Assembly (NCBI GenBank): GCA_963706025.1
Contig: CAVPLM010000014.1
Coordinates: 64,001 to 128,000, forward strand
DNA: 64,000 nt
Reading direction: 5' to 3'
From: an uncultured Actinomycetes bacterium
Lineage (GTDB): Bacteria; Actinomycetota; Thermoleophilia; RBG-16-64-13
The translations under genes were made by a program, and so were the position numbers. Shown one piece after another: positions 28,875-58,682 of the stretch. Every line of letters begins with the position of its first letter. Within the stretch, counting starts at the first letter, position 1. The notes beneath the pieces were generated by a model, which saw only the letters and a program-made list of their open reading frames with translations, had not been told where the DNA came from and did no database searches.

Positions 28875-28880
28875 TTTGCG

Positions 28881-31156: not shown

Positions 31157-31189
31157 CCTGCGCTCACCACTAAACAGGAGGGTCTTCTT

Positions 31190-31651: not shown

Positions 31652-31654
31652 GCC

Positions 31655-32674: not shown

Positions 32675-32713
32675 GACTTCATTCCGAAACGAACAACCGG
32701 GGAGGTCGCCTAA

Positions 32714-32917
32714 ATGAGTGAAAAGATCAACTGCGGCAAGTGCGACATGCTGCTCTACTTCGGGGAGGAGATCAAGCGCCGTCTCTACATGCGGGCCATC
32801 CCCGACGAGGCGGCGGTATTGGCCGCCTACAACAATGCCTGTCCCCGCTGCGGCAACCCGCTTTCGGAGGATTCCGTGAAGGTCCAGATCAAAAGGCGGC
32901 GCACCCATGGCTCATAA
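32714..32917 (+). CDS. Small zinc-ribbon protein
   Basis: GGAGG RBS; CGKC...CPRC; overlaps the transketolase start. Confidence 0.7.
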   Translation: MSEKINCGKCDMLLYFGEEIKRRLYMRAIPDEAAVLAAYNNACPRCGNPLSEDSVKVQIKRRRTHGS

Positions 32918-34785: not shown

Positions 34786-34820
34786 GGCCCGGTGTGAGCC
34801 CGGGCAGTGGAGCGACATAA

Positions 34821-34840
34821 GTTGGTGACCAGTAACCAAC
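34821..34840. promoter_or_regulatory. Palindromic operator GTTGGT-N8-ACCAAC, copy 2
   Basis: gttggtgaccagtaaccaac upstream of cyclase and transhydroxylase genes; matches 15869-15888. Confidence 0.65.
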
Positions 34841-34877
34841 GAACACACGACCAACGGGCGCTTTGGACTAGGGAGGC

Positions 34878-39600: not shown

Positions 39601-39629
39601 TTGACAAAACGCTTCCTACGTAGGATAGT
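39601..39629 (+). promoter_or_regulatory. Putative sigma70 promoter of the amidohydrolase-dpp operon
   Basis: TTGACA-N17-GATAGT. Confidence 0.6.
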
Positions 39630-39630
39630 G

Positions 39631-39668
39631 GAATCGTTCGACGATACAAGTGTATTGACTAATGATAC
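39631..39668. promoter_or_regulatory. Tandem 17-bp operator (GTAT-N9-ATAC-like), putative IclR sites, copy 1
   Basis: gaatcgttcgacgatac and gtattgactaatgatac, 21 bp apart; same arrangement at 54547-54584. Confidence 0.6.
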
Positions 39669-39690
39669 GCTCCTAGGGGGGACCTGGGTC

Positions 39691-40783
39691 ATGCGAGCAG
39701 CAGGCCGTTTCGTCGTAGAAGCTCACGGCCACATCACCACGCTCTACAAGTCCAAAGGGAAGCCCCCGGGTGACTACTTCGGCGGGCTCACCAACAGTTT
39801 CAGCGAAGGCGAAGTGGAGTACTTCGACAACTCGCCGCTCACGCTCTACGACATGGAGCGCTACGGCGTGGACATGGTCCTGCTCAAGCCCAGCCAGGTG
39901 GGCAACACCAACGAGAGCCACGCCGAGCTGGTCGATCGGTACCCGGACAAGTTCCGGGCCTTCTGCTCCGACGGCAAGCTGAGGATCAAGTGCTCCCGGG
40001 GCGAGGCCAAATGGAACCTGGACGACGCCGCCCAGGAGGTCGAGGCCGCTCTCAAGACCGGCAAGTTCATCGGTATCGGGGAGTTCGTCCCCCGGGACAT
40101 GGACGAGAAGAAGGTCTACACCTACGCCGAACGGCTGAACGAGTACCGCACCTTCTGTGAACTCGCCCAGAAGTACGGGGTGTCCATCGACTTCCACGAT
40201 TTTGCCTGGGGCTTCGAGTGGGACTTCTATGCGCTGCTCACCCGGCTGTCCATGGAGTACCCGGACGTCCCCATCATCTTCAACCACGGCGGCTACTCCA
40301 TCGGGTCCTATATAGAGGGGGCCGACGTCGTCCGCAAGGCCTGCGTGGTGGCCGGCCGGGCCATAGGCCCCGGCGGGAGCAACGTCTACCTCGAGACCGG
40401 GTCCTGGCCCGCCGAGTACTACGAGATAGCCCTCAAGGACCCCAACGTCGGCGTCACCCAGCTCATCTGGGGCGGGGACTACGGCCACGTGCCCCAGTAC
40501 ATCCTGGGCAACAAAGGCGGTGATCCGCCCACCTTCTCCACCGCTATGAAGCGTTGGCCGCGGGTACCTACCTACCAGATCGACTGGTGGGGATGGTCGC
40601 TTGCACCAGATCGACCGGCTGCGCGACTGGGTCACCCAGGACGAGATCAACCTGATCCTGGGCGGCAACGCCGCCCGCATCTGGGACCTGCCCGTGCCGC
40701 ACGAGCGCATGTTCATGAGCGGCCGCCCCGACGTCTGGGGCATCCACTGGGAGGAGTCGGTGCCGAAGCCGGACAAGGCCTGA
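39691..40783 (+). CDS. Amidohydrolase-superfamily protein (Amidohydro_2-like), 3' frameshift
   Basis: VEAHGH, GIGE, DFH, IIFNHGG, NVYLETG, WGGDY, ILGGNAAR. Confidence 0.85.
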
Positions 40784-40845
40784 GGTCGGGGCGGGAAGAT
40801 GTCGCCGGCTGAGCCGCAACTACGCAGGGCCGGAGGAGACAGGGA

Positions 40846-41804
40846 ATGATCTCCTACCTCATCCGCAGGGTGGTGCAGGCGATCGCTCGTCGTCCTGCTG
40901 GCCTCGTTCCTGGTGTTCGGCATCATGCACTGGCTGCCCGGCGATCCCATCCTGATCTATGTGACGTCGGACTCGTACAAGCAGTACACCGCCGAAGAGA
41001 TCGAAGAACTTCGTCACCAGTACGGCTTGGACCGGCCCGTGATCGTGCAGTACGTCGATTGGCTCGGCGGCGTCTTCACCGGCGATTTCGGCAAGTCGAT
41101 CACCCGCGGAACGTCGGTCGCCGACGATCTGGCCCGGGCACTACCTGATCACCCTGTACTACGGTCTGACCGCCTTCATCTTCGCCCATCTGATCGGAAT
41201 ACCGCTGGGGATCGTCTGCGCGCTCCGACGAGGGAAGTGGCTGGACAGCATGATCACCGCGCTGGCCAACGTCGGGATGACGCGTGCCCATCTTCTGGCT
41301 GGGGATAATCCTCATCTACGTCTTCAGTCTCAAGCTGGGCTGGCTGCCCGTCGGCGGCTACACGTCCCCCACTGAGGACCTGGCGATGAGTCTGAAGCAA
41401 CTCATCATGCCTGCCTTCTGCCTGGCTCTCGGGCCGCTGGCCGGGTCCACGCGGCAGACGCGTTCGGCCATGCTCGATGTGATCCATCAGGACTAGTGCG
41501 AACGGCCTGGGCAAAGGGACTCAGGGAACGGGCCGTGGTCAGCCGCCACGTGATAAAGAACGGCATCCTGCCGGTGGTCACTCTGTCAGGGATGGCCATC
41601 CCCATGGTGATCGGCGGGTCGGTGCTGGTTGAGAACGTCTTCAGCATCCCCGGTATGGGAAACCTGGCGACCACAGCCCTCTTCAACAAGGACTATGCCG
41701 TCGTCCAAGGAGTCGTCCTCATCGTGGCCATCATCGTCGTCTTCTCGAATCTCCTGGTGGACATCTCCTATGGCTATCTCGACCCCCGAGTGAGGGTGGG
41801 TTGA
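40846..41804 (+). CDS. dppB: Dpp/Opp-type ABC permease B, frameshifted
   Basis: LPGDP, GLDRPVIVQY..W, GDFGKS, PIFWLG, VLVENVFSIPGMG, LDPRVR. Confidence 0.87.
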
Positions 41805-42698
41805 GAGCCGGGGCGGTAATAGCCCCGGGGGCCGCTGCTGCTTCCGCCGGCGAATGAGCACCGGCCGGCTTGGCGGTACATCTTCTCCTCCACCGGGGTC
41901 TCTTCATGTTCGGCGCGGTGGTGATCGTCTTGCTGGTGTTGGTGGCCGTCTTCGCCCCGCTCATTGCTCCCTATGATCCATACGCGCCAGACATGCAGAA
42001 CTCCCTCGCGCCGCCCTCGGCCGACCACTGGCTGGGCACCGATCGCCCTCGGCCGGGATACTCTCAGCCGCCTGATATACGGCTCTCGTACCTCTCTGGT
42101 CGTGGGTCTCAGCGCCGTCGCGGCGGCTCTGATGCTGGGCGGGCTGCTGGGGACTGCAGCCGGCTTCCTTGGCGGCGGGGTTCAGACCGTCATCATGCGG
42201 GTGGTCGACACTCTCATGGCGATACCCATGTTGCTTCTTGCCCTTACCTTGGCTGCAGTCCTCGGCGGCGGCCTGAAGAACGTGGTCATCGCCATCTCCA
42301 TAAGCATGATCCCGCCCTTTGCCCGCCTGATGTGCGCTCAGACTCTGACCATCAAGGAGAGGGACTATGTAGCCTCCCTGCGCAGCATGGGCGCGACGCG
42401 GGCGACGGTGTTCGGCCATGTCATGCCCAACGCCTACCCGGCCGTCCTCGTCTTCGGCACCATGATGATCGGCAGCGCCATCCTGGGTGAGGCCGGTCTC
42501 AGCTACCTCGGTATCGGCATCACTCCACCTGGGGCGGCCTGGGGCGCCATGGTCGCCGCCGGGTTTCCCTACCTGCTCACCAACCCTTGGATGTCGATAG
42601 CTCCCGGGGTCTGCATCATGCTCGTTGTCTTCGCTTTCAACATGGTGGGTGACGGGCTGCGGGACGCGCTCGACCCCCGCCTGAGGGGGACGATGTGA
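41801..42698 (+). CDS. dppC: Dpp/Opp-type ABC permease C, frameshifted
   Basis: IAPYDP, HWLGTD..GRDTLSRLIYGSRTSL, HVMPN, LSYLGIG, GDGLRDALDPR; start uncertain. Confidence 0.87.
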
Positions 42699-43721
42699 GC
42701 CACCCGGGCAACACGCCGCTGCTCGAGGTCCGCGACCTACGCGTGGAGTTCCGGACACCTCATTGGCACCGTGCAGGCGGTGGATGGTCTCTCCTACACG
42801 GTATACGAGAACGAGATCGTCGGCATGGTGGGCGAGTCAGGCTGTGGCAAGTCGGCCAGCCAGTTGGCCGTGATGCAGCTCATCCAGAGCCCGCCCGGCT
42901 TCATCAGCGGGGGAGAGGTTATCTTCGGGGGGAAAGACCTCCTCCGCTACAAACGCAACGGTCCGGAGATGCGCGCGGTCCGAGGAGGCCAGATCGCCAT
43001 GATCTTCCAAGAGCCAATGACTTCGCTCAACCCCGTCTTGACGATAGGCGACCAACTGGTCGAAGCCGTCCGGGTGCACTGCGGCCTTAGGAGGCCAGAG
43101 CGGCAAAGCGCGGGCGATAGAACTTCTCAAGATGGTAGGCATTCCCGCGGCTGAGCGCCGGGTGAACGACTACCCTCATCAGTTCTCGGGCGGGATGTGC
43201 CAGCGCGTGATGATCGCCATGGGTCTCTCCTGCGGCCCGCAACTGCTCATCGCGGATGAACCTACCACTGCCCTCGATGTCACCACCCAGGCTCAGATGC
43301 TCGAGCTCATGAAGAGGCCTGGTCCAGAGAGCTCGAACACCTCCCTGGTCATCGTCACCCACAACCTGGGAGTGGTGGCCCGATACGTCCAGAGGATCTA
43401 CGTGATGTATGCCGGACGTGTCGTCGAAGAAGGGACCACGAAGGAGATCTTCGGCCGGCCTCGCCATCCTTACACGTTGGGGCTCCTCAGGTCGGTGCCC
43501 CGGCTGGACGAGACGAGGGCAGCCGACTGGTGCCCATCGATGGCATGCCGCCCAATCTCATCGATATGCCGGGTACCTGCGCCTTTCTGCCCCGATGCCC
43601 TTACAGCATCGATCGCTGCCGAACCGACCCCTGGCCCGACCTCACTTCTGTGGAAGATGGTCATCGTATCCGTTGCTACGTCGATCTGGAGACTCGTCCA
43701 GTTGAACACGCGCTTGCCTGA
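42695..43721 (+). CDS. dppD: Dpp/Opp-type ABC ATP-binding protein D, frameshifted
   Basis: [35 protein letters not shown]-terminal Cys motif. Confidence 0.88.
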
Positions 43722-44699
43722 CCAAGAAGAGGTCCTTCGCCTCGTCGACCTGGAGGTTTCACTTCCCCATCACGAGGGGGGTGTGGAGGCGCAAGGTCGG
43801 GACGGTGAAGGCTGTGGATGGGGTGAGATCTCACCGTGAAGCGAGGCGAGACCCTAGGCCTGGTGGGCGAATCGGGCTGCGGCAAGACCACTATCGGCCG
43901 CTCGGTCATCCGTCTCTACAAACCGACCTCCGGCCAAGTGTGGTTCGAAGGCCAGGACATAAGCCGTCTTGGCGAGCGGGCTTTGCGGCCTATCCGTCGC
44001 CGCATGAGCCTCATATTCCAGGATCCCAGCGGGTCCCTGGACCCCAGGAAGAGTGCCGGCTCGATCGTGGGCGAACCTCTGAGAATCCACAAGTTGGTGA
44101 ACGGCCGGCGGTCCTACGACGAGAGAGTGGAAGAGCTCTTCCGGCTGGTCGGGCTCGATCCTTCGATGATCGACCGGGTTCCCCACGAGTTCTCCGGCGG
44201 CCAACGGCAACGGATCGGGATCGCTCGGGCACTGGCCTGCGACCCTTCCCTGATCATCTGTGACGAGCCGGTTTCGGCTCTGGACGTTTCCATGCAGGCT
44301 CAGATCATGAACCTGCTTCAGGATCTCCAGGAAGGGTTGGGCGGCCTCGCCTACATCTTCATCGCGCACGACCTGTCGGTCGTGCGGCACGTGAGCGACC
44401 GGGTGGCCGTGATGTACTTGGGACGGATCGTGGAGTTGACCGAGTCCCGTATGCTCTACAGCGCTCCCCGCCACCCCTACACCAAGGCTTTGCTTGCTGC
44501 GGTGCCGATTCCTGACCCGTTCGTTGAGGAGACCCGGGAGCATACCGTCCTACGAGGGGAGATACCGAGTCCCCTGAGCCCACCGGAGGGGTGCACGTTC
44601 CATCCCCGTTGCTCGTACTGCGATCCAGCCTGCAAGACGCAGGTGCCTCAGCTCCGCGAGGTCGCTGAGGGCCACTACGTTTCGTGTTTGCTCGCCTAG
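43702..44699 (+). CDS. dppF: Dpp/Opp-type ABC ATP-binding protein F, frameshifted
   Basis: [45 protein letters not shown]. Confidence 0.9.
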
Positions 44700-44814
44700 C
44701 TGCCGAGCGAGGAAGGAGGGGGTAGGAGCCAGGAAGCCAGCGAGTGTCGACTTTGAGTTCCTCCGGCCGTTCGAGAGGCCGGACGGGGAAGGGCAACACA
44801 AGAGGAGGAAAGCA

Positions 44815-46568
44815 ATGCGAAAGACTATTTGGTTGGTGCTTGTAGCCGTGTTGGTCCTCGGGCTGGTCGCGGCCGTGGCCGTAGGCTGCGACGACGATGA
44901 GGGCACCACAACCACCAGCGCCGCCGGCACCGAGACCACTGCGGCACCCAGTAGCGAGACCACCGCGGCGCCCAGCACCGAGACGACCGTAGCTGAAGGC
45001 GAGCCGGTCATGGGCGGCATCGTCAAGACCGGCACCGTTTCACGCCCTGCCAAGTTTGGATTCCCTCCCACGGTTTTCGGGCCCGACCAGTGGTTCGAGG
45101 GCCTGTTCCTGGAGATGATGTTCAATCCCACCGATCAGATCGACGTCTACACTCCCGCTCTGGCAGAGAGCTGGGAACTCACGCCCGACAAGTCCGCCTA
45201 CATCTTCAAACTCCGCCAGGGCGTGAAGTTCCACGACGGCACGGATTTCAACGCGGCGGCATGTAAGTTCTGCTGGGAACTGGCGATGGGCTCCCCGCCT
45301 GCCGCCCCGCCCGGCCCACCGCCCGGCGAGGGTGGACCGCCGCCCAGCGAGGGGACCGCGCCGGTGGACCGCCGCCCGGTGGGCCGCCCGCCGGCCCGCC
45401 CCCGGACTTCGCCTTCGTGGACTCGATCGAGGTAGTAGACGACTACACGGTCAAGGTCAACCTGAAATCCTGGAGCAACCAGGTCCTGCCGTTCATCGGC
45501 CGCAAGTCCTGGGCTGTGTTCTCCCCGACCGCATTCGAGAAGAACGGCGCCGAATGGATGAACACCAATCCGGTGGGCACCGGCGCCTTCATGCTCAAGT
45601 CTTTCACCCCTGACCAGAAGATGGTGCTCGAGAAGAACCCGAACTACTGGGGCAAGGACGCCCAAGGCCGGCAGTTGCCGTACCTGGACGGTGTCGAGAT
45701 CCAAGTTTTCGGCGACCCCAGCACCATGACCATGGCCCTGCAGGCCGAACAGATCGATGGCACCGACCAGGTGAGCCTCGTCGGCGCCCAGCAACTGCAG
45801 AACGACTCCAAGTTCATCCTCAGCAGCTTCGGCGGACCGGTCCTGATGTTGGAGATGAACACTACGGATCCGGCTTCCGTGTGGAGCGACATCAAAATGC
45901 GACAGGCGCTGGAATACGCCCTCGACAAGGAAGGGATGGCCAAATCGGTGGGGATGGGTTTCACCCCCGCTGTTTACACGGTGATCCACAGCGTCGCCGA
46001 CGTTGTCGATCCGGGCACCACGCCGCGCACCTACGATCCGGAGAAGGCTAAGTCTCTGATGGCCGAGGCTGGTCATCCCACGGTGGAATTCACGCTCAGC
46101 TATGACACGAACAGGACGGACCCCGGCATGGCTGAAGCAGTCCAGGCGAACCTGGCCGCCGTCGGGATGACCGTCAAGCTGAACGGGATGAACACGGGGG
46201 CCTTTGCCGCAATCAGCACCACGGTGCCCCAGGGCAACGACATGATATTCCAGGGCCTGCGCGGTAGTTCCCCGAACGTCCTGCAGGGGGCCATCGAGAT
46301 GTACGGCAAAGGGACCATCTACTTCCCGGCTGCCAACTTCCCTGCGGACTTCTACACGCTCATGGATAAGGCGCAGACCCATCCGAGCATCGCCGACGCG
46401 AACCCCGACATCGCCCAGATGGAAAAGGTCGCCTACGACGATGCGCAGGTCTGCCCCATCACCATGGCGGCTTTCATCGCGGTGACCGGACCAAAACTGA
46501 AGAACATGGAATGGCACCTCGGCAATACTCCGACCCCGTGGTTCAACGAGGCTTGGCTGGCCCCATGA
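44815..46568 (+). CDS. Family-5 ABC substrate-binding lipoprotein, frameshifted
   Basis: Lipobox AVGC, Thr-rich linker, PALAESWE, LRQGVKFHDGTDFNA, PVGTGAF, KNPNYW. Confidence 0.88.
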
Positions 46569-46603
46569 TTTAGAGGCATAGCTGTCTTTTAGAGTGGTTG
46601 CGA

Positions 46604-46634
46604 CGCCCGGCAGCAGCGGCGCTGCTGCCGGGCG
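46604..46634 (+). other. Perfect 14-bp GC-rich stem-loop after the SBP gene (mRNA-stabilising hairpin or weak terminator)
   Basis: cgcccggcagcagc-ggc-gctgctgccgggcg; no U-tract. Confidence 0.55.
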
Positions 46635-46704
46635 CCCGCTCCGACGCAGAAAACCGCCGAATCACGCTCCGAACATGAAGGGCGTACGGCCCGAGGAGAC
46701 AGAA

Positions 46705-48337
46705 TTGACCGTATCAGTCATCACACGATCCATGGAGGCGGATGTCCTTGTGATCGGCGGCGGACTCGCCGGCTGCACGGCGGCCATCCACGCCCGCGCA
46801 CGGGGTGCCTCCGTCATCCTTGTCGACAAGGGCTACGTGGGCAAGTCGGGCCAGACGCCGTTCGCCGGGAGCTACTGCGTGTTCAACCCGGAGTGGGGCG
46901 ACGATCTGGAAGCTTGGATGGATCAGATCAACACGTACTCCGATCATCTCAACAACCGAGTCTGGACCGAACTCTGCTTCAAGGAGTCGCATGCCCGCTT
47001 CGAGGAACTCTCGGCTTGGGGAGTGCGGTTCGAGCAAGACCCGTCGGGACGGCTACGCCGGGGAGGCACACCGTTGGGGCCCTGCAGGGCGCTTAGCATG
47101 GAGGTCCGCGAGCCCTCCATGATCCTGCGCCGCAAGGTCCTCGAGAGTGGCACTACGGTCCTCGACAGGGTCATGGTGGCCGAGCTCCTTACCAGGGACG
47201 GCGCGGTCATCGGGGCCGCCGGCATCCCCATGGACGCCGAGGAAGTGCTCGTGTTCAGCGCCAAAGCCGTGGTACTCGCGGCCGGGGCCGGCGGGTTCAG
47301 ACCGACCAACTGGCCGATCAACAACCTCACCTCCGACGGCGACTGCATGGCCTACCGGTTGGGTGCCGAGATCACCGGAAAGGAGTTCGCCGACCCTCAC
47401 GCGGGTTTCGGCGACCGGGCCGGGCACATGGGCTTCGGGCGGTACGGCCGCGTCCCCGAGGGCGGAAGGCCTCGGATGGGACGCCGGGTCAACGCCGAGG
47501 GCGACCCGGTGGGCTCCGCCGGCACTCTCTTTCTGGACCTTGATTTCGAAGCCCACGCCGGGCGAGCCCCTATCTACGTGGAGTACGAAGGCGGAGAACG
47601 CCATCCGGTCGTCGGCGGGGCCGCCTCGGGGATGTCCACTCACAAGGCAGAAGGGGTGTGGCCGGCCGACACCGACTGCTCGTCGAACATACCCGGTCTG
47701 TTCGCCGCGGGTGACTCCCTCGGCACGATGCAATCGGGAGCCACCTACGCCGCCATCGGCCAATCGGTGCTCGGTTGCTCGGTCACGGGAACGCGGGCGG
47801 GCCTCGGGGCTGCGGCGTACGCCTCCCGGGTCGACGGGCGCCTCCCAGAAACAGGTGAGGTGGAGCGGGTGACCGAGGGTTTGGTCGCCGCCCCTCGAGC
47901 GTAAGGGCGGCTTCAGTGCCCGCTGGGTCACGCAGATGCTGCAGAACACCATGATCCCCTACTACGTGATGTACGTGAAGCATGGAGATCGCCTACGGGC
48001 GGCGCTCACCAACGTCGAGTTCTTCCGGGACCATCTGGGCCCCATGCTGTACGCGCGGGATCAGCACGAGCTGCGGATGGCGCATGAGACGAAGAACATG
48101 ATCTTGAACGCGGAGATGCGCCTGCGTGCTTCCCTCTACCGCACGGAGAGCCGGGGCTGCCATTACCGGGAAGACTACCCGCGTCGGGAAGACCCGGACT
48201 GGCTGGCCTGGGTGATCATCAAGAAAGGAGAAGACGGGCGGATGGAGCTCTTCAAGCGTCCGCTGCCCCAGGAATGGTGGCCGGATGTCTCCCAGCCCTA
48301 CGAGAAGCGCTACCCGGTGAGGATGCCCGGTGAGTGA
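46705..48337 (+). CDS. FAD-dependent oxidoreductase, AprA/SdhA/FrdA flavoprotein family (copy 1), frameshifted
   Basis: DVLVIGGGLAG, TSDGDCMAYRLGA, PGLFAAGD, ASLYRTESRGCHYREDYP. Confidence 0.85.
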
Positions 48338-48387
48338 CACATGGAAGAAACCCGGCTCCCGACCAATCCGAGTTGAGGAATCAGCGC

Positions 48388-48609
48388 ATGGCAATTGAGA
48401 AGATCGACCAGGAGCTCTGCATAGGCTGCGGCGACTGTGTGAACAGCTGCCCCATGGACGTGATCCGGATGGATGAGGAGACCGGCAAGGCCGTCATCCG
48501 CTACGGCGAGGACTGCATGATCTGCGATCAGTGCGCGCTCGATTGTCCGGTGGACGCCATCACCGTGACGTCCTCGAAGACCTCGCCACTCACGCTGAGC
48601 TGGGGATAG
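48388..48609 (+). CDS. 2x[4Fe-4S] ferredoxin, AprB-like (copy 1)
   Basis: CIGCGDCVNSCP..., IRYGEDCMICDQCALDCP. Confidence 0.88.
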   Translation: MAIEKIDQELCIGCGDCVNSCPMDVIRMDEETGKAVIRYGEDCMICDQCALDCPVDAITVTSSKTSPLTLSWG

Positions 48610-48624
48610 AGAAAGGGACCGGAA

Positions 48625-50410
48625 GTGAAAGAGACCTCGGTTGCATGCGATGTGCTGGTGATCGGCGGCGGCCTGGCCGGCTGCTTCGCCGCGGTCAAGG
48701 CGCGCGAGCAAGGGCTGGACGTGATCTTGGTCGACAAAGGATACGTGAGCCGCTCCGGGGAGACTCCCGATGCCGGCGACACCGCGGTGTTCGATCCGGC
48801 GTGGGGCCACGATCTCGAGCAGTGGCTCACCCAGGTCAGCGCCGTCGGCGAGTACGTCAACAACCGGCACTGGAACGAACTGGTCTTTCGTGACTCGCGG
48901 GAGCGGTTCGCCGATCTGCGCTCCTGGGGAGTCCGGTTTCTCGAGAAGGACGGCGAGCCCGTGCGGCTCGCCCATCCCCTGAAGAACACCAGCCTTCCCG
49001 ATAGGGACAAGTTCCCTCCCCTGGTGAGCGAGGTGGTCCACTGGCTGCCGGGGTTCCCCGAGATCATCAGGAAGCACGTGCTGAAGAGTGGCGTGCGGAT
49101 CGTGGACCGGTTCATGGTCACCGAACTCCTCTGCCAGGAAGGACGCGCGGTGGGGGCGGCCGGATTCGCCATCGAGGGGAACAAGCCCAGCGTGATCCAG
49201 GCGAAGGCGACCGTGGTTTCCGCCGGAGGAGGAGGTTTCCGGCCCATCGGCTATCCCACTCACGAGCTGACCGCCGACGGTCACGCTATGGCCTATAGGG
49301 CAGGGGCCGTCATAACCAGTAAGGAGTTCGTGAGCCCCCCATTCCACCAGCCCCGACCATCCGGCCTGGCCTCCGATGTACCTCTTCTTCTCGTCAGGGG
49401 GTTCGGCGGCTCTGCCCGGCTTCTGGGAGGACCCCAAGCTCTTCAACGCGCTGGGCGAAGAAGTACCGGCGCGCGGCATAGCCTGGCACGGGTGGCTTGA
49501 CGCCGAGTACGAAGCCCACGAGGGACGGGCGCCTTTGGTGCGCGATCTGGGGCGACGGGGCCGGCAGCCGGTCAGCGGACCGGGGGCGCACGGCTCCATG
49601 CTGGGGCATGCCACCGGAGGTATCTGTCCGGTGGACGACGATTGCGCCACTCACGTACCCGGTTTGTTCGCCGCCGGGGACAGCTGCGGTACCTGCTTCA
49701 TCGGGGCCTCCTATTCGGGCTTCGGCTTCGCCACCATGCACGCGGCCGCCACCGGGGCGCGTGCGGGCCTGGGAGCGGGCCGGGAGGCGGCGCAGACGGC
49801 GGCCGGCCGCGGCGGCTCTAGGCCCAGCCGGGCAGCGGCAGCCGACAGTGGGGCCGCCATGCTGGACAACCGTCTGGTGGCCGACGCCGTGGGCCGGGTA
49901 CTGGCGCCGCTCGAGCGGAAAGGCGGTTTCAGCCCCCGCTGGGTGACGCAGGTTCTGCAGAACACCCTGGCTCCCTACTTCGTGCTCTACGTGAAGAGAG
50001 GCGACCGGCTGCAGACGGCGCTGGATACGGTGGAGTACCTCCGCGACCACATGGTCCCGAAGCTCTACGCCCGCGATGACCACGAGCTCCGTCTGGCCCA
50101 CGAGACCAGGAACATGGTAACGAACGCCGAGATGAAGCTCAGGGCTTCGCTCTTCCGCACCGAGAGTCGCGGGACCCACTACCGCGAGGATCACCCCGGT
50201 CGGAACGACGAGGAATGGCTGGCCTGGGTCAGGTTGAAAGACGACGATGGTGCCATGGGGGCCTTCAAAGAGCCCATCCCCGCCGCATGGCACCCGGATC
50301 CGGCGAAGACCTACGAAGAGAGATACCCCATGCGCCTGCCGGGAGAGCCGACCGGGGCCGATAGGTCGCAGGGCGACCGGCCTGTCCCGCAGCCGGGAGA
50401 AGGGGGGTAG
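48625..50410 (+). CDS. FAD-dependent oxidoreductase, AprA/SdhA/FrdA family (copy 2), frameshifted
   Basis: DVLVIGGGLAG, TADGHAMAYRAGA, PGLFAAGD, ASLFRTESRGTHYRED. Confidence 0.85.
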
Positions 50411-50415
50411 CGGCG

Positions 50416-50634
50416 ATGCCCATTGAGTCTATAGACCCTGTCATGTGCAACGGCTGCGGCATCTGCGTGCGCAACTGCCCCATGGACGTGATCCGCATGG
50501 ATAGGACGATTCGCAAGGCGCAGATCCGCTATCCGGAGGACTGTATGTTGTGCGGCCAGTGCTTGGAGTGCCCGGAGAAGGCCATCTACCTCAAGCCGGG
50601 GTTCCTGCAGCCCACGCTACTGGGCTGGGAGTGA
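50416..50634 (+). CDS. 2x[4Fe-4S] ferredoxin, AprB-like (copy 2)
   Basis: CNGCGICVRNCP, IRYPEDCMLCGQCLECP. Confidence 0.87.
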   Translation: MPIESIDPVMCNGCGICVRNCPMDVIRMDRTIRKAQIRYPEDCMLCGQCLECPEKAIYLKPGFLQPTLLGWE

Positions 50635-50637
50635 ACC

Positions 50638-51807
50638 ATGGAGAAGCTTAGCTACCCCGTCACCGGCACCGGCATGAAGCGGTTCTACGGGCCCCGCGGG
50701 GAGATCGCGCGACCCGAGCCGGGAGAACCGTTCTACGGGCAGGACGCCTATTATCCGGGTCTGGAACCTTCCTATGAGGACAACGGCGACGGCACGGTGT
50801 CGGATCTGCACACGGGCCTTGTGTGGCAGAAGACCACCGACGCCAAGCCCGACTCGCTCGAGGGGCGCATCACCTGGTACGAAGCCGAGGGCTACGCCCG
50901 CGACCTCAGGCTGGGAGGGTTCGACGACTGGCGGGTGCCCGGCATCAAGGAGCTGGTGTCGCTGGTCGACGCCAACGGCGCCATGATGATCCACAAGCCC
51001 TACTTCGACGAGAGGTACTTCGATCTCACCTACGGCCCTAGCAACGTCGACGGCTACAGGGATATCGATTCCCAGCTCATCACCGGCACTTCCTATATCG
51101 CGAAATCTGTCCTGTTCTCGGATTGGTGGGTGGACTTCGGGGAGAAGCTGATCGAGCCCGGCAAGATGCACCTGGCGCCGACCTTTTTCGGCTACAACTT
51201 CACCGACGGCCGCATCAAGAGCTACCCGAAGGAGAACCACCCCTACAACGGGCTGCAGACGTGGTGCATCCGCTGCGTCCGAGGACCCGCCTACGGGGTG
51301 AACGACTTCGTCGACAACGGTGACGGGACCGTGAGCGACCGAGCGACGGGACTCATGTGGCAGAAGGCCGACGATGGCAAGGGGCGGACTGGAAGGAAGC
51401 GCTGGACTACGCGGAGCACCTGGAACTGGCCGGCTACGACGACTGGCGGCTCCCGAATCAGAAGGAGCTCCAAAGCATCGTCGACTACGACTTCATCCCG
51501 GCGATCAATCTCGTCTTCCATGTGAGCGACCCCCGGGGCTGGTTCTGGAGCAGCACGCCCTTCATCGACATGCCCGGACAGGCGGTGTATGTGGCGTTCG
51601 GCAAGGCGACGGGCAAGACTTCTGCGCGGCCGGAGGACGAATACGACGTGCACGGGGCCGGGGCGATGAGATCCGATCCGATGGTGGGGGATCCCGCCTG
51701 CTTCCCGGAGGGACGGAGGTCCGCAGAGAGACACCGTGAGGATCTACAACTACGTCCGCGCGGTCCGGAACATCGGCGCGCCTCGGCGGCCTCGGCATCC
51801 CCACTAG
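50638..51807 (+). CDS. DUF1566 (Lcl C-terminal) domain protein with two repeats, frameshifted
   Basis: Two DNGDGTV.D..TGL.WQ...W..A..Y...L.L.G.DDWR.P..KEL repeats; ends YVRAVR. Confidence 0.82.
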
Positions 51808-51830
51808 CAGCTCGGAAAAGGAGAGACCAC

Positions 51831-52831
51831 GTTGTCAGCACGAACGGCATCTCGCGCACGGACAGCGCCGTGACCCGACTTCCTGCGAGCATGGGGCCGC
51901 CGCCTCCCATCCCGCCCTACCTGCACGAGACGGAGTTCAGCGTCATCACGGTGGGCAGCGGATCGCCGGAGCTCAACCCCGAGCCGGGCCGGCGCCTGCA
52001 CCGTCGTTCAGTACAGGGGCAAGTACTACGTCGTCGACGCCGGCAATGGTTCGGCACTGAGCTTCATCAAAGGTGGTCGCCACGGCTCCTACCGCCCAGG
52101 GATATCGCCGCCGTCCTTTTCACGCACCTCCACCAGGACCACGTGAACGACTACTTCGACCTGGTGACGACCAGGTGGAGTGAGGGCGGCAAGCGCCTTG
52201 ACCTGATAGGGCCACCCGGGAGCCGGAGAGCTCCACGGCTTCCTCATACTTTTTTCAGGGACGACCTGGTCTACCGCTGGCTGGGCGCGGCCGGCAGGCA
52301 TCGACGGTGAGGGGATGTTTACGGGGGTAGACGTGCGAGAGCTCACGGGATCGAACGAGTTCGAGCTGGGAGGGATGAGGGTAACGACCGCCGAGATGAC
52401 CCACTCCATGTACGACCTGGGGTATCGCTTCGACGTCGAGAAGCGAGTCGGTGGTGGTGTCGGGAGACACTGCCTTCGACCGCCGCTTGATCGCGCTGCC
52501 GAAGGGGCGGATGTCCTGGTGATCGACGCCAACCCTTGGGCGCGATGGGACCAGGCCACCACCGCCGCGCAAGCTCTCTGGCCGAGTTGCCGGCGGAGTA
52601 CCAGGTACGGGTGCCATACCGGGGCGATCCCGAAGCGCCGAACCACATGTCCTTGCCCGAGGTGGTGCGGATGGCGGCGGAGGCGGAGGTCAAGCACGGT
52701 GGTGTTGACCCATCTGTGGCCGCTGCCGGTGGACGCAGGCGCTGGTGGAGCGGACAGAGGCAGCGTTTGTCACCGGAGGCTTCCAGGGGCGGGTGGTCTT
52801 TGCCGAAGACGGTCTGGAGGTAGCGGCTTGA
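51831..52831 (+). CDS. MBL-fold metallo-hydrolase (RNase Z/arylsulfatase-like), frameshifted
   Basis: GSGSP, VVDAG.G, FTHLHQDH, VSGDT, ADVLV, LTHLWP; start uncertain. Confidence 0.8.
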
Positions 52832-52879
52832 TACCCGACTGGTGCCAAATACGGTGACATGAACGAGGAGGCTCGATAG

Positions 52880-54113
52880 ATGAGAAGGTATATCGCCCGC
52901 TTCGTAGTCGACACCCACTGTCACATCACCACCCTCTACCAACCGGGAACGGACGCCGGGTGGGAGAAGGTGGAGAACGAAGAGTGGACCGGACTTGAGG
53001 CCGAACTGGCTCCGTTCGACAACTGCTTCCTGACCATGTACGACATGGACCGTACGGCGTCGACATGGCGGTCCTCTTGCCCAGCATCCCGGGGACGCTC
53101 GAACGAGACTCAGGCGAAGCTGGTCAAGCGATTCCCCGACAGGTTCCGGGCTTGCTGCAGCGACCAGAAGACCATCCTCAACGCGGTGCGAGGGCAAGGC
53201 GCCCTGGAGCTTCGAAGGCGGCGCTTGCACGAAGTGGAGGAGGCACTCAAGACGGGCTGGTTCGTAGGCATCGGCGAGTTCGCCCCGGGCTCGTACGCCC
53301 GGAACCTGCAGGTTCCCGGGGCCGAGGGCAAGGTCAGCTTCGAGCAGCGGGTGGAAGAGTGGGCGGCCCTCTGCGAGCTGGGGGTCAAGTACGACGTCCC
53401 GGTCCTTTGCCACGACCAGTTCATCTGGCACCGGGAAGGCAGCTGGACGCTGACCCAGCTACTGGCCAAGGTGTCGGAGATGAACCCCAAGGCCAAGATC
53501 ATGCAGACGCACGGCTGCGTCGAGGACGAGTGGACCCGGGGCCTGGACGCCATCAGGGAGATGTACACAGTGGTCGCCGGACTCGCCAACGTCTACATGG
53601 AGACCGGAGGCTGGTGCGAGAAGCAGTTCGAGGTGGCCTTCGAAGTCGGGGTCACCGCCGACCACCTGATGTGGGGACACGACTACGGCAACGTGCCCCA
53701 GCACATCGTGCGCCGGGGCGTGGAGAAGTACGGGCCCAAACCCAAAGCCCTCGAGTATCGCAATCACCATGTCGCTCATGATGTTCGGCTACAAGGACTG
53801 GCCGGCGGTGCCCACCTATCAGCCCGACTTCTACGGCTGGGGCCTGCGCACCGTCGACCGGGTGGGCGACTGGCTCACGCAGGACGAGATCAACCTGATC
53901 ATGGGCGGCACCGCCGCCAAGCTGTACAAGCTGCCGGTGCCCTACTCGCGGATGTTCCCCGAGGGCCGCCCGGACATCTTCGGCGACAGGGCGGCGGAAA
54001 GCGTGCCCTTCATCCCGCGGGAGCAGATCCAGCATCCCGATCCGGAAGGTCTGAGAATGTCGACGAACCCCTGCAAAATACCGCTGGGCCACATAACACC
54101 AAGCCGCCCGTAG
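52880..54113 (+). CDS. Amidohydrolase-superfamily protein, paralog of 39691-40783, frameshifted
   Basis: VDTHCHITTLY, GIGEF, THG, NVYMETG, WGHDYG, QDEINLIMGG. Confidence 0.85.
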
Positions 54114-54210
54114 GCGGCTGGTAGAAAGAAACAGAAGCGAGGGCGGATGTCGGCTTCGAACGTTGATCTAGACCACAGCTACCCGGTCGGGACCAGGGGG
54201 CATGAGACGG

Positions 54211-54486
54211 CTAGCGCATGCGCATCGCCTCGAGGAACGTCGGCGAGATCTCATAGCCTGCACGGTCACCGACTATCAGAGAGTCGCCGCAATGAGGGCA
54301 GATTGCGGTCCGGTCGACATCGCCTTCAGGATGATCCCGGTCGACTTCGTCGGTCCACTCCTTGATCTCCGCAGGGACAAAGGTGGAGAGACAGTTGAGG
54401 CAGCCGCATGTGTTGCTGGCCAGCACCTCTTCGCGGTTGTGCTTGGTGTGCTTGCTCACTTCCTCACGGTCGGCCCTTCGAAACAT
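54211..54486 (-). CDS. Small Cys-rich (zinc-finger-like) hypothetical protein
   Basis: AGGAGG RBS; CGCLNC...TAICPHCG. Confidence 0.72.
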   Translation of the reverse strand: MFRRADREEVSKHTKHNREEVLASNTCGCLNCLSTFVPAEIKEWTDEVDRDHPEGDVDRTAICPHCGDSLIVGDRAGYEISPTFLEAMRMR

Positions 54487-54513
54487 GTCGGCACCTCCTA
54501 ACGCGCGCGACGC

Positions 54514-54542
54514 TTGCACGCGTCAAACAATACTTGTATGAT
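54514..54542 (+). promoter_or_regulatory. Putative sigma70 promoter of the beta-helix/IclR operon
   Basis: TTGCAC-N17-TATGAT. Confidence 0.65.
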
Positions 54543-54546
54543 GGTT

Positions 54547-54584
54547 GTATCGTCAAGTGCAACGGGCGTATTATCAAATGATAC
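54547..54584. promoter_or_regulatory. Tandem 17-bp operator, putative IclR sites, copy 2
   Basis: gtatcgtcaagtgcaac and gtattatcaaatgatac, 21 bp apart, immediately downstream of the -10 box. Confidence 0.6.
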
Positions 54585-54636
54585 ACATGGTTGAGTGTTT
54601 GCAGGTGCGAGTCCGTCGATCATTGCAGCTCGGGTG

Positions 54637-57175
54637 ATGAATACTAAGGCTCAGGTAGACACGGAGTGTTCCGAGCTTACGCCCGGCTCGGGGCCCGCCG
54701 CAGAGGTAGTATTCGTTGATGGCAGGAACGTCGCCGGCCCCTGGGACGGCCGGTCATGGGGAACGGCCCATCGGACCGTGCAGGAAGGGCTGGACGAGGC
54801 GACCAGGCGCATCGCAGCAGCGCAGGAGCGCTACCGACTCGGCTAGACCCGGAGAGGTTCTGAGTGCCGAGGTGTGGGTAGCTGCGGGTGTCTACAGACC
54901 TACCGACAGAGGCGACAGGACCGCCACCATCCGTTTGCACACAGGGGTCGGGCTGTACGGCGGCTTCACCGGGATGGAGACCGAGCGTGACCAGCGGGAC
55001 TGGAAAAGCAACGAGACCATCCTGAGCGGGGCCATCTCCGATGACCCCAAAGACCACTCGTACCATGTGGTGATCGGCGCCGACGATGCGGTCATCGACG
55101 GCTTCACTATCCGCGACGGCTACAACCTGCCCGAGGGACGCCCGCCCGCATCACATGAACCCCGGCCTGCTGCTCGAATCACGTGGTCGGGGCACCGGTG
55201 CGGGGATCCTCAACTTCCAATGCGCTCCGACGGTGCGTAACTGCCTGATATGCGACAACGTCGCTGCCAAGGGTGACGGCATGTACAGCATGGTCACCCG
55301 CGATTGGCCGGCGACGGGGGTGGAGAAAGCGCCCCTCGTGGAGAACTGCATCTTCGCCCGGAATCTCGCGGAAGGCAGGGGCGGGGCCGTTTCGAACGAT
55401 CTGGAGACCCATCCTACTTTCGTCTCCTGCGCCTTCGTGGAGAACCGGTGCAACGGTAAGGGTGGCGGCATGTACAACGACTTCGACTGCTCACCCTCGC
55501 TCGTCAACTGTCTGTTTGCCCGAAACGAAGCCATGAAGGGCGGCGGTATGGCCAACGACGGGCGCTCCAATCCCACCTTACAAACTGTACGTTTGCCCGG
55601 AACAATGCGCTGGACATGTACGGCGCGCTGTATAGCGGTACGGGTCCTACGAATGTCCCCAACGTGCCGGTTGTCACCAACTGCATATTCTGGGGCAACA
55701 CGGCCCATAGTGGGCCCAAAGAGATCGGCAATTGGCACGACTGCCGCACGGTCGTCTCGTACTCGTGCGTCGAAGGGGGGTACGCGGGCGAGGGCAACAT
55801 CGACGCCGACCCGCGCTTTATCGACCCTGACGGGGGCGACTTCCGCCTGGGACCGGGATCTCCCTGCATCGACTCGGGCCACGGTGGTTTCGCACCTCCA
55901 GCCGACCACGACGGCAACCCCCGCTACGATGACCGAGGCAGCCCCACCGGCCCGATGGCAAGGGTCCCTTTCATCGCCCCCGGTGCTCACCTGCCTGAGC
56001 CGTCCTTGGAAGCTCGGTTCCAGGCACCCGTGGACATGGGTGCCTTCGAACGACAGATCGATTCGGTGCGCGCCGGCGCTGAAGCGGAGGCCCCGCGGGG
56101 TGGGTCCGACCGGGTCGTCTACGTCAGCAGAGACAACATCGAGGGTCCGTGGGACGGGAGGTCCTGGGACACCGCGTACTCAGATCTACAGGAAGCGCTT
56201 GCCGACGCCTATCTGGGGGCGACCGAAGTGTGGGTGGCTGCTGGGATCTACCGGCCGGCCGAAGGCCATGACCGCACGGCCTCTTTCCGGCTCAAGGGAG
56301 GACTGGCCCTCTACGGCGGTTTTCGGGGAACCGAGACAGCTCGGGAACAGAGGAACTGGGCGGCAAACCGCACGGTGCTCTCCGGCGATCTCGGCAGCCC
56401 GCTGGGAAGGGGCGGCAATTCCTACCACGTGGTGATAGGGGCCGACGGGGCTTTCCTGGATGGCTTTGTGATCACCGGTGGAGAAGCCGACGGCGAGGGC
56501 ATCCATTCCCACGGAGGGGGGATGCTCAACTACAACGCCTGCTCGCCGGCCGTCTCCAACTGCCTTTTCACCGAGAACTACGCCGGGGAAGGCGGCGCCA
56601 TGTACAACTACAACCTTTCCTCCCCGGCTGTCACCGACTGCGAGTTCAGTGGCAACGAGGCGGCGAAGGGCGGGGCAATGGTGAACCGGGTTGGGGCCTC
56701 CCCAACCGTGGACCATTGCTCGTTCATCGGCAACCGGGCTGAGTGGCGGGGCGGCGCGATGCTTATCGACTACGGCTCGGGCCCGAGGGTCTCCGCTGGC
56801 GTCTTTGAGGGGAACCACTGTGGTGGCCACGGGGGCGGGGTCTTCCTGGAGAGCGTAGCAGCGCAACTCGGTATTGTCGGCACGCATTTCGACGGCTGTT
56901 CCTTCGTGACGAACTCAGCGGTGCTCCGAGGAGGAGCTCTGGCCTGCGCCGACGCGAGCAACCCGACCATCACCCGCTGCAGCTTCGAGGGCAACAGAGC
57001 TGGGAGCGGGGGAGGGGCCATCTCTAACGACTACTTCGTCACCTCAAAGGTTCAGGACTGCACGTTCGTAGGTAATATCGGCGGTGACGGACGTGCCGAC
57101 GTCGATACCGACCCAACGTCCACGGTGATCGGCTGGGGTGACGTGCTGCCGGACGGTGTTCTCGGAGGTTCTTGA
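54637..57175 (+). CDS. Right-handed parallel beta-helix (pectin-lyase-fold) protein with internal duplication, frameshifted
   Basis: Two copies of DGRSW.TA...EVWVAAG.YRP...LYGGF.G.ET...LSG...SYHVV; many F..N.A..GG(A/G)M repeats; NIDADPRF...SPCIDSG...DMGAFE; start uncertain. Confidence 0.8.
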
Positions 57176-58022
57176 TGGCCAAGGGCAGCGACACGACAAG
57201 CGGAATGCCGGAGAGTCCCAGCCGAAACGGCGGGCTCACGGAGCGCGGTAGCGACGACGTTTTCCAAGTCCGGGCTCTTTCGCGCGGACTGCGCATACTC
57301 GCGCTCTTTACATTGGATAATCCTGAGTGGAGCCTGAGCGACTTGACTCGGCGAACCGGTCTTCACAAGGCCACCACTTACCGTATGACGAGGACCATGG
57401 AGGCCGAAGGATTCCTGGTGTTCGATGCGCACCTCGGGAAGTACCATCTAGGTCCGGCCACGATCCCTCTGAGCTTCCTGGCCTCGTCGCAATCGGAGCT
57501 GCTCCGGCTGGCTCGTCCCTATCTCGAGGAGTTGGCGGAGTTGACAGGCGAGACCAGCAATCTGGCCGTGGAGGTGGAAGGCAGTATCGTAGTAATTGGG
57601 CAAGTGCTCACTTCGCATCCATTCAAGCCCACACTGCCTTTGGGACGGGTGCTCAATGATCTCGCCAATGCTCATGGAAAGCTCTTCGCGGCCTTCAAGC
57701 CCGAAGCCGAGAGAGCCCGGATCCTTTCTCTACCTCAAGTGAAGCTCACCCCCAAAACGGTCACCGACCCGGTTGAGATTGCGGCTCAACTGACCCAGGT
57801 CGCTACAGATGGGGTGGCCTTCGATCTCGAGGAGCACGGCCTCGGTATCTATGCTGTGGCCGCGCCCGTGCGAAACCAGAGCGGCGACGTAAAGGCCACC
57901 CTCTCGGTGGTCGCGCCCAAGGAGAGATTCGGCGCCTCAGGAGAAGAAGAAGTATGTCCAGGCTGTGAAGACGCGTGGCGGCGTCGTTCTCCGCCTACCT
58001 GGGCTATCCTGGCGGCAAATGA
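57175..58022 (+). CDS. IclR-family transcriptional regulator (3' frameshift)
   Basis: VRALSRGLRIL...SLSDLTRRTGLHKATTYR, TGETSNLA, AHGK, E...GIYAVAAPV. Confidence 0.88.
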
Positions 58023-58112
58023 GGCCACTTCTGGGTCGCCGAGTCTTGTGGGTTTGTCCCTGAGTCTCCGGAGACGATGGTACTCTGACTGCATATCAGA
58101 GAGGGGATGCAT

Positions 58113-58682
58113 ATGGACCAGGATGACGTTTCGATCCTCGGCATCGCCGGCAGCCTGCGCCAGGCTTCTTACAACCGGGGGCTGTTGCGGGCGGCGGCGG
58201 AAGTGCTGCCTCCTGGAGTGAGCCTCGATATCCTCACGCTTGACGACATCCCGTTGTTCAGCGCCGACGTCATGGCCGGGGGCGACCCACCGTCTGTCCA
58301 TGAACTGAAGGAGCGCATTCGTGCGGCCGACGCCCTGCTCATCGCCACTCCGGAGTACAACTACTCCATACCGGGGGTGCTGAAGAACGCCGTGGACTGG
58401 GCTTCGCGACCCTCGAAGAACAGCGTCCTTCGCGGCAAGCCTATCGGGATCATGGGGGCGTCGGGCGGAGACAGCGGGACCATCCGCTCCCAGATGGCGC
58501 TGCGCCAGGTGTTCATCCAGACGAACTCGCTCGTCATGGTGCAGCCGGAGTTACGGGTTGCCCAAGCGGGGGCGAAGTTCGATGCCGCTGGCAACCTCGT
58601 GGACGCGGAGCTGCGCGAGCGGCTCCGCGCCTTCGTGGCGGCTCTGGTGGACTGGGCGCGGCTGGTGGGCAGCCGGGCCTGA
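58113..58682 (+). CDS. NADPH-dependent FMN reductase (ChrR/SsuE-like)
   Basis: GSLRQASYN, ATPEYNYSIPGVLKNAVDWASR. Confidence 0.92.
   Translation: MDQDDVSILGIAGSLRQASYNRGLLRAAAEVLPPGVSLDILTLDDIPLFSADVMAGGDPPSVHELKERIRAADALLIATPEYNYSIPGVLKNAVDWASRPSKNSVLRGKPIGIMGASGGDSGTIRSQMALRQVFIQTNSLVMVQPELRVAQAGAKFDAAGNLVDAELRERLRAFVAALVDWARLVGSRA

Follow-up and report, generated by a model that had tools for sequence, protein, structure and literature searches.

The genes between 39.6 and 58.0 kb of a stretch of Thermoleophilia DNA (contig CAVPLM010000014.1, positions 64,001 to 128,000; the whole 64 kb, of ~64% G+C, is referred to as the window) form an island of amidohydrolase, transporter, flavoprotein, ferredoxin and regulator genes, for which an earlier note, made from the letters alone, could name no precedent. 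The question raised by this locus is whether the island is a real functional unit and, if so, what it acts on. We put at roughly 55% the probability that it is a true catabolic regulon, conserved among uncultured Actinomycetota (Thermoleophilia/Gaiellales-like), repressed by an IclR-family regulator and driven by ferredoxin, by which a phenolic or aromatic acid, ester or lactone would be imported and degraded. The island is a regulator-linked catabolic cluster in which known superfamilies occur in an undescribed combination. The gene set was not found in the literature searched, of which coverage was poor for subscription journals and preprint supplements were excluded.

Gene calls were based on stop-to-stop frames with a coding-like signal in G+C at third codon positions, followed by a Pfam scan. 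The order of the genes and their common orientation on the + strand were borne out from 39.6 to 58.0 kb. The run opens with Amidohydro_2 (amido1), two BPD_transp_1, two ABC_tran with oligo_HPY and SBP_bac_5, continues with FAD_binding_2 plus Succ_DH_flav_C, Fer4, a second FAD_binding_2 plus Succ_DH_flav_C and a second Fer4, and closes with two Lcl_C (DUF1566), Lactamase_B_2, a second Amidohydro_2 (amido2), Beta_helix/Chlam_PMP and HTH_IclR plus IclR_C. The start that had been assigned to the island, 39601, is in fact the TTG of a TTGACA -35 box, the ATG of the first gene being at 39691. At the other border iclR truly ends at about 58016–58019; its apparent run to 58221, and with it the apparent overlap with the start of an FMN-reductase gene (58107), (57934–58221) is due to two late one-base insertions.

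Conservation was evaluated in 35 related loci (L numbers), obtained by a one-genome-per-species scan with an alignment of the amidohydrolase; 7 of the 35 are shorter than 9 kb. The loci stem mostly from metagenome-assembled genomes (MAGs) titled Actinomycetota, Gaiellales or Thermoleophilia, and a few from Dehalococcoidia, Bathyarchaeota, Neomoorella, Vibrio, Oscillospiraceae, Rhodospirillaceae, Acidobacteriaceae and Deltaproteobacteria. Synteny with the first half of the island (amidohydrolase 1, dppBCDF, binding protein, flavoprotein, ferredoxin, flavoprotein) was found in L025, L028 and L029, with ~80% nucleotide identity over 39.6–46.6 kb. The second half (flavoprotein, ferredoxin, DUF1566, metallo-beta-lactamase (MBL) hydrolase, amidohydrolase 2) is syntenic in L005, L007, L010, L014 and L016, with 72–84% nucleotide identity over 48.4–54.1 kb. 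As L025 is separated from L001 by 2.8 kb of the same contig and L028 and L016 overlap on another, both halves stand together in at least two other MAGs, and the genes of the island do co-occur elsewhere.

An AprA-like flavoprotein of any type was present in 18 of the 35 loci, an IclR regulator and a 120-aa ferredoxin in 13 each, a 72-aa ferredoxin in 12 and a molybdenum (Mo) subunit of the DMSO-reductase family in 11. DUF1566 and MBL, always in the same loci, were found in 8, a GltD/NfnB-like NAD(P)H module in 7, and dppB and dppC in 5. The islands of relatives are larger. They encode up to five more flavoprotein-ferredoxin units, an AthL-like Mo subunit and a second DUF1566 and MBL; a short-chain dehydrogenase/reductase, an aldo-keto reductase and a nitroreductase are also present, as are two exporter-type ABC proteins. 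The window thus holds a compact variant with the transhydroxylase just upstream rather than inside and a beta-helix gene between operator and iclR; the beta-helix gene is also linked to the gene set in L012 and L026.

That both promoters carry the same operator, as had been proposed, was confirmed. The 64 kb contain two exact copies of the pattern GTATT-N6-TGATAC, at 39652 and at 54568, and no more, whereas 100 shuffles contained none, and the two promoter regions align in register. The composite site reads GATAC-N4-GTATC-N7-GATAC in relatives. A scan of the 35 loci and the window (636 kb) that tolerated up to 2 mismatches over the 15 fixed bases resulted in 17 matches versus 0–3 per shuffle (20 shuffles), all of them upstream of island genes. 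The operator precedes orthologous genes in 11 related loci. It was observed upstream of amido1 in L025, L026, L028, L029 and the window, upstream of the MBL-amido2 genes in L001, L006, L014, L015 and L016, and upstream of the AthL-like Mo gene (L001), the beta-helix gene (L012) and iclR (L010), the L010 block carrying it also before its first gene (position 1434). The second site of the window has 2 mismatches to a looser 13-base pattern and fails the 15-base scan.

Site 1 of the window begins two bases past the predicted -10 box, which is the position expected of a repressor, and site 2 lies in the divergent region separating a small ORF (open reading frame) from the beta-helix-IclR unit. The regulator (PF09339, E 2.7e-15; PF01614, E 2.1e-31) is the probable operator-binding protein on account of its adjacency and of the site before iclR itself. 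It would repress both units and its own gene at the composite operator until released by an effector, presumably the substrate or an early product. Operons of the PcaU/PobR/PcaR type are similar in having an IclR protein encoded beside its targets and a palindromic operator over the promoter, and the pcaR_pcaU model matches the island regulator at E 1.7e-38; its score however is 132 bits, as compared to a pcaR_pcaU cut-off of 285.

The reading frames of the island were investigated further by a dynamic-programming alignment of intact orthologues to the window that allows for frameshifts. Thirteen of 15 tested genes are interrupted, by 31 one-base insertions and 11 one-base deletions (42 events in total), and only the genes of ferredoxins 1 and 2 are without a break. 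Most Pfam domains are split across neighbouring frames. In the case of the amido2 ORF the best relatives cover 71%, and tblastn places the remainder in another frame, along with two short out-of-frame stretches. The domains and the order of the proteins listed in the earlier note accordingly stand, but the frameshifts had been overlooked and the record as written encodes fragments. After frame correction, identity to orthologues was 0.63–0.97 and 5 in-frame stops remained in 5673 codons. When slices of related loci were treated likewise, no event was found in the 5236 codons of intact L025, L007 and L010, but 27, 7, 7 and 5 events were found in L028, L014, L016 and L015, respectively.

Such a record could be that of a true pseudogene cluster, in which the pathway has been abandoned, the genes are decaying and the locus is inactive in this genome. 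The sheer number of events across 13 genes is compatible with this, as is their patchiness. Frameshifts are concentrated in two zones (about 16.8–26 kb and 37.9–58.0 kb), both of which look catabolic or accessory, while 26.5–37.9 kb and 58.1–64 kb are clean; uniform sequencing error does not predict such clustering, and real decay of dispensable islands could give it. On the other hand, neutral decay lasting long enough for 42 indels should also have left many nonsense and larger changes. What is seen instead is single-base events only, an excess of insertions and a near absence of stops, with orthologues intact in other MAGs. Amido1 is moreover 97–98% identical to relatives in amino acid sequence at a nucleotide identity of ~80–88% (the 97–98% refers to the intact L025 orthologue), which implies constraint until very recently, and like damage has arisen independently in four related MAG records while other records are clean. 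We therefore regard a decaying cluster as unlikely, and the frameshifts of the window as quite probably assembly consensus errors, judged by the pattern of the events. An alternative genetic code or programmed frameshifting was rejected, the events being scattered, of both signs and absent from orthologues. The case illustrates that an island can seem novel even when most of its reading frames are disrupted in the record, and intact orthologues (L005, L007, L010, L025, L029) rather than the frames of the window are suited for experiments.

The second frameshift-rich zone, 16800–26000, contains fragments spread over changing frames of a malate/lactate dehydrogenase (C-terminal part missing), an old yellow enzyme (OYE)/Pyr_redox enzyme, an AMP-binding ligase, subunits of a 2-oxoacid:ferredoxin oxidoreductase and a Peripla_BP_6 binding protein.

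The nature of the substrate was approached through the two PF04909 enzymes. Their relatives fall into 112 and 287 clusters and are named merely 'amidohydrolase family protein' or 'hypothetical'. Pfam matches of the window copies are weak (E 8e-8 to 2.5e-3), Amidohydro_2 scoring 32.7 bits in amido1, 45.9 in the L005 orthologue of amido2 and 18.1 in the broken amido2 of the window (gathering threshold 26.4). A sequence search of the Protein Data Bank (PDB) with the amido2 orthologue P0001 returned no match. A model of the amido1 orthologue built from a 117-sequence alignment reached a predicted local distance difference test (pLDDT) score of 94.4. Its nearest PDB folds are an uncharacterised clostridial amidohydrolase, 2,6-dihydroxybenzoate decarboxylase, dihydroxybenzoate decarboxylase, LigJ hydratase, 2-pyrone-4,6-dicarboxylate (PDC) hydrolase, LigW and ACMSD, with template modelling (TM) scores of 0.5–0.69, at 11–17% identity and a query-relative TM of about 0.5; the weaker model of the amido2 orthologue (pLDDT 65.8) has the same neighbours. 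H14, E131, H169, H199, E235 and D263 are invariant in the 117 sequences and H12 nearly so. The island enzymes thus share the TIM barrel and the HxH...H...D site of the aromatic enzymes of PF04909/COG2159 (gamma-resorcylate and dihydroxybenzoate decarboxylases, LigW, LigJ, LigI, ACMSD), and differ from them in being at most 17% identical, in the extra invariant E131 and H199 and in a conserved C-terminal extension.

An 'amidohydrolase', the name used in the earlier note, would in the literal sense cleave amides. The island would then degrade an amide, a peptide-like conjugate or an N-heterocycle, the Dpp system importing a peptide- or opine-like compound, a flavoprotein-ferredoxin pair reducing a ring or double bond and the amidohydrolases opening amide bonds. 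The HxH/E/H/H/D metal site of the PF04909 enzymes is typical of hydrolytic amidohydrolases, reductive ring opening by an Fe-S flavoprotein together with an amidohydrolase is established in pyrimidine and nicotinate fermentation, and, among solved and curated proteins, those closest to the binding protein take peptides, glutathione, nickel chelates and opines. The fold neighbours however belong to the decarboxylase/hydratase/lactonase group of PF04909 (aromatic-acid decarboxylases, LigJ hydratase, PDC lactonase), and the sole cyclic amidase among the listed matches, dihydroorotase 5vgm, ranks 48th. The transporter neighbours in distant lineages also differ: Dpp-type in a Rhodospirillaceae MAG, Liv-type in several Actinomycetota, tripartite ATP-independent periplasmic (TRAP) in Neomoorella, TRAP of the TAXI type with MarR (the sole MarR case) in Vibrio, and major facilitator superfamily (MFS) carriers in Oscillospiraceae, Acidobacteriaceae and Dehalococcoidaceae. 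A transporter that stays adjacent and yet varies in kind fits a small imported organic acid. Together with the AthL-like Mo enzymes and arylsulfotransferase (ASST) found next to the enzyme in other lineages, these partners point to aromatic acids or phenols. Amide cleavage is hence considered improbable, and the aromatic reading is preferred.

The importer of the island is complete, comprising two permeases, two ATPases with oligo_HPY tails and a family-5 binding protein, all of them frameshifted; a lipobox was seen in the L029 orthologue of the binding protein.

The MBL hydrolase matches arylsulfatase 8gyg over its full length (33–315 vs 11–293) at E 1.2e-15 with HxHxDH aligned, at about 27% identity (by eye), and more weakly RNase Z and PNGM-1. 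The fold of 8gyg is that of SulfAtlas family S4. ASST genes were observed beside a PF04909 enzyme and a ferredoxin or flavoprotein in L019 (12311–13750, Neomoorella sulfitireducens) and L024 (772–2100, a Bathyarchaeota contig). Based on these homologies the substrate may be a sulfated aromatic.

The flavoproteins have few close relatives, the best full-length representative being 46% identical, and 158 clusters pass E 1e-30; in the ESM Atlas only generic unnamed family clusters were found. The family profile matches mycobacterial SdhA (2e-55), archaeal PAPS (3'-phosphoadenosine 5'-phosphosulfate) reductase alpha (2e-47), AprA (3e-47) and L-aspartate oxidase (1e-39). Scores nonetheless fall below the thresholds of the known enzymes. 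The aprA model TIGR02061 gave 61.5 bits with the intact L005 orthologue (34–35 with the window fragments) as compared to 641.75, and the best SdhA/FrdA model, PRK08275, gave 178–222 as compared to 587. Neither a three-cluster SdhB-type subunit nor a membrane anchor is encoded alongside, the neighbours being two-cluster ferredoxins of 72–120 aa. A complex model of the intact L005 flavoprotein with its 72-aa ferredoxin had an ipSAE of 0.91, against 0.00 for the best control. Of 157 solved complexes 116 attained this mark, and of 215 mismatched pairs 2 did, though here the solved AprAB structure may account for the pass. Contact agreement between runs was at least 64% and partner pLDDT at least 81. 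The modelling lends support to a putative heterodimer of the flavoprotein and the small ferredoxin, as a sign of likeness to AprAB rather than as proof. AprAB and archaeal PAPS reductase resemble these pairs in the profile match of about 1e-47 and, as far as the modelled interface goes, in the layout of a FAD alpha and a 2x[4Fe-4S] beta subunit. The island differs in a ferredoxin of just 72 aa, in missing the aprA and aprB cut-offs by far, in SdhA outscoring AprA and in that sulfate-activation genes were not seen around it in general Pfam/NCBIfam scans, no targeted search having been made.

Arylsulfatase-like and AprAB-like enzymes side by side could mean that sulfur rather than carbon is the core of the metabolism, the MBL desulfating aryl sulfate esters and the flavoproteins acting on APS (adenosine 5'-phosphosulfate), PAPS, sulfite or sulfonate. 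The match to 8gyg, the ASST genes adjoining the amidohydrolase, the profile similarity to PAPS and APS reductase alpha and a small ferredoxin that mimics AprB all go in this direction. SdhA rather than AprA is the best profile match, however, and the aprA score is too low by an order of magnitude. Sulfate adenylyltransferase, sulfite reductase and sulfite exporter did not turn up in Pfam/NCBIfam scans of chosen ORFs (window and 15 of 35 loci), which were not a targeted search. The number of such flavoproteins, which rises to five or more in a single locus (L001, L007), is also better explained by a set of substrate-specific reductases. A sulfur core is accordingly held to be very improbable, and catabolism of an aromatic compound, sulfated or not, is retained.

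Directly upstream of the island lie genes for a Mo subunit matching pyrogallol hydroxytransferase 4v4c (E 1e-273) and its Fe-S subunit, and a cyclase-family gene adjoins them. The family is that of dihydrophloroglucinol cyclohydrolase (DPGC), according to the accessible part of PMC10470551. The arrangement resembles that of AthL/BthL of Pelobacter acidigallici and the phloroglucinol pathway (PGR, DPGC, TfD, TAL) in its close AthL homologue, Fe-S subunit and upstream cyclase-family gene, and differs in that none of the island's own genes figures in the pathway as that accessible part describes it. The proposal that the island feeds the adjacent transhydroxylase has indirect support. AthL-like Mo subunits are found inside the island in L001, L012, L014 and L016, in L001 with the operator, but none was found before the athL gene of the window, so that the link there is by position only.

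Between 37900 and 39225 the 4v4c match ends at residue 745, leaving the C-terminal ~110 residues unmatched, the frame signal shifts near 37950 and 38100, and the Fe-S subunit is split over three frames; the broken zone thus begins upstream of the island. Further upstream, an intact block (26535–35636) encodes a Liv-type ABC importer, two Zn-alcohol dehydrogenases, a glyoxalase-fold protein, a split transketolase-like pair and the cyclase-family (DPGC family) protein, and is possibly part of a trihydroxybenzene route.

From gene content and homology we infer the following substrate class, chemistry and order of reactions. An anionic phenolic or aromatic compound would be taken up by the Dpp-type ABC importer and its family-5 lipoprotein. 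The two divergent PF04909 enzymes with their HxH/E/H/H/D site and the arylsulfatase-like MBL would then remove or open carboxyl, lactone, ester or sulfate-ester groups, after which the two AprAB-like heterodimers would reduce the product with low-potential electrons delivered via the ferredoxin subunits. Trihydroxybenzene-type products would probably be passed on to the pyrogallol-phloroglucinol transhydroxylase encoded next to the island and to the phloroglucinol route. The electrons may originate from the GltD-like NAD(P)H module in relatives, and in the window maybe from the products of the 2-oxoacid:ferredoxin oxidoreductase genes at 20.5–22.8 kb. The GltD/NfnB-like protein, of 556 aa in L005 (13670–15337), has an N-terminal Fer4, Fer4_20 and Pyr_redox_2 (PRK12771, E 2e-116). 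It also occurs in L001, L007, L010, L014, L015 and L016, follows a 680-aa flavoprotein and a 120-aa ferredoxin, and is likely the point of NAD(P)H entry into the ferredoxin chain.

More tentatively, and with the balance of probability against it, the island may represent a so far undescribed pathway, driven by ferredoxin and controlled as one IclR regulon, by which Thermoleophilia/Gaiellales of soil would process plant polyphenols anaerobically. AprAB-like pairs would be partnered in it by a new PF04909 subfamily, the MBL, a cytoplasmic DUF1566 protein and AthL-like Mo enzymes, the candidate substrates being lactone, ester and sulfate-ester forms (ellagic-acid-like compounds, sulfated phenols) and the flavoenzymes a new class of phenolic-ring or side-chain reductases.

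The view that the island lacks a precedent is overstated. According to the accessible text of a preprint (10.1101/2025.01.17.632430), the ellagic-acid (urolithin) cluster of Gordonibacter/Ellagibacter already combines a metal-dependent decarboxylase-lactonase of the same superfamily, Eah (IPR032465), with three Mo catechol dehydroxylases, MFS transporters and a LuxR regulator; the accessible part of a second (10.64898/2025.12.05.692447) names Eah EAL. As far as these sources go, the two clusters have in common their occurrence in Actinomycetota, an ACMSD-superfamily metal enzyme with a transporter, bis-molybdopterin guanine dinucleotide (bis-MGD) Mo enzymes and a dedicated regulator, and anaerobic processing of polyphenols. 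The island has an ABC importer instead of MFS, IclR instead of LuxR and an AthL-type Mo enzyme, and adds two AprAB-like pairs, DUF1566 and the MBL hydrolase, the comparison being one of descriptions, not with the Eah sequence. Catalytic His12/185/186/287 of EAL, as given in the accessible part of 10.64898/2025.12.05.692447, have no obvious match in H12/H14/H169/H199 of the island enzymes. None of the source names given with the 112 and 120 PF04909 relatives listed is Gordonibacter, most rows being nameless.

Several points weigh against an IclR-controlled aromatic regulon. In addition to the distance of the fold neighbours, the solved AprAB structure and the patchy frameshifts mentioned above, the HxH/E/H/H/D pattern suits a hydrolase no less than a decarboxylase, and the nearest solved relatives of the binding protein, as listed above, include none that takes phenolics. 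The operator was not found before the window's own transhydroxylase genes in window-wide pattern scans, and the window is without the GltD-like NAD(P)H module of its relatives. No island protein reached a curated NCBIfam cut-off, and thus none has a function assigned by homology.

The locus is of interest mainly for its new PF04909 subfamily and its AprAB-like enzymes, themselves uncharacterised, in soil bacteria that are abundant but uncultured. If the aromatic reading is true, abundant soil Actinomycetota that are still uncultured have a modular set of tools for phenolics that works without oxygen. This would bear on the persistence or loss of polyphenols in wet soils and in peat, an issue raised as the 'enzyme latch' question in the accessible part of PMC10470551. 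It would also provide a testable context, including a defined operator and a regulator, for three families whose present annotation goes no further than 'amidohydrolase family protein', 'FAD-binding protein' and 'Lcl C-terminal domain protein'.

Features of the island, with positions counted from the first base of the window
Feature	Position	Strand	Remarks
Promoter 1 and operator	39601..39677	+	TTGACA-17-GATAGT, then overlapping half-sites GAATC..GATAC-N4-GTATT-N7-GATAC
amido1, PF04909 metal-dependent hydrolase/decarboxylase	39691..40783	+	one +1 frameshift near 40600
dppB-type permease	40846..41804	+	4 frameshift events
dppC-type permease	41801..42698	+	3 frameshift events
dppD-type ATPase	42692..43721	+	3 frameshift events
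dppF-type ATPase	43657..44699	+	start uncertain; 2 frameshift events
Family-5 (Opp/Dpp/Nik-type) solute-binding lipoprotein	44783..46568	+	2 frameshift events
Flavoprotein 1, SdhA/AprA-like, FAD	46675..48337	+	one frameshift near 47890
Ferredoxin 1, 2x[4Fe-4S], 73 aa	48388..48609	+	Pfam
Flavoprotein 2, SdhA/AprA-like, FAD	48637..50410	+	one frameshift near 49336
Ferredoxin 2, 2x[4Fe-4S], 72 aa	50416..50634	+	Pfam
DUF1566, apparently cytoplasmic, two Lcl_C domains	50638..51807	+	2 frameshift events
MBL-fold hydrolase, HxHxDH	51840..52857	+	about 11 frameshift events
amido2, second PF04909 enzyme	52880..54113	+	6 frameshift events
Small Cys-rich ORF, 91 aa	54211..54486	-	between the two units, divergent from operator 2 region
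Operator 2	54547..54593		contains GTATTATCAAATGATAC at 54568-54584
Right-handed beta-helix/PMP-repeat protein	54601..57175	+	4 frameshift events; L012 homologue about 857 aa
IclR-family regulator	57175..58019	+	two late frameshifts

The 91-aa ORF was absent from the earlier gene list and adjoins the shared second operator region. It contains CxC..C and CPxC motifs and has a promoter-like site at 54556–54527. Pfam and NCBIfam scans of the protein were without a match; its DNA is conserved beside iclR in L010, L014, L015 and L016. Sequence searches of the PDB returned no match for the beta-helix protein or for DUF1566, the latter giving generic unnamed clusters in the ESM Atlas. A second DUF1566 paralogue in L005 (6359–7900) begins with a hydrophobic segment followed by Cys and is lipoprotein-like by eye, whereas the window copy looks cytoplasmic. 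Rfam at gathering scores (38000–59000) and ARAGORN (whole window, tRNAs) both gave 0 matches, and thus neither a riboswitch nor a tRNA-linked island border was found in these ranges. The left end of the window (898–6041) is unrelated to the island and encodes radical-SAM proteins, one of them cupin-fused, and a GT4 glycosyltransferase.

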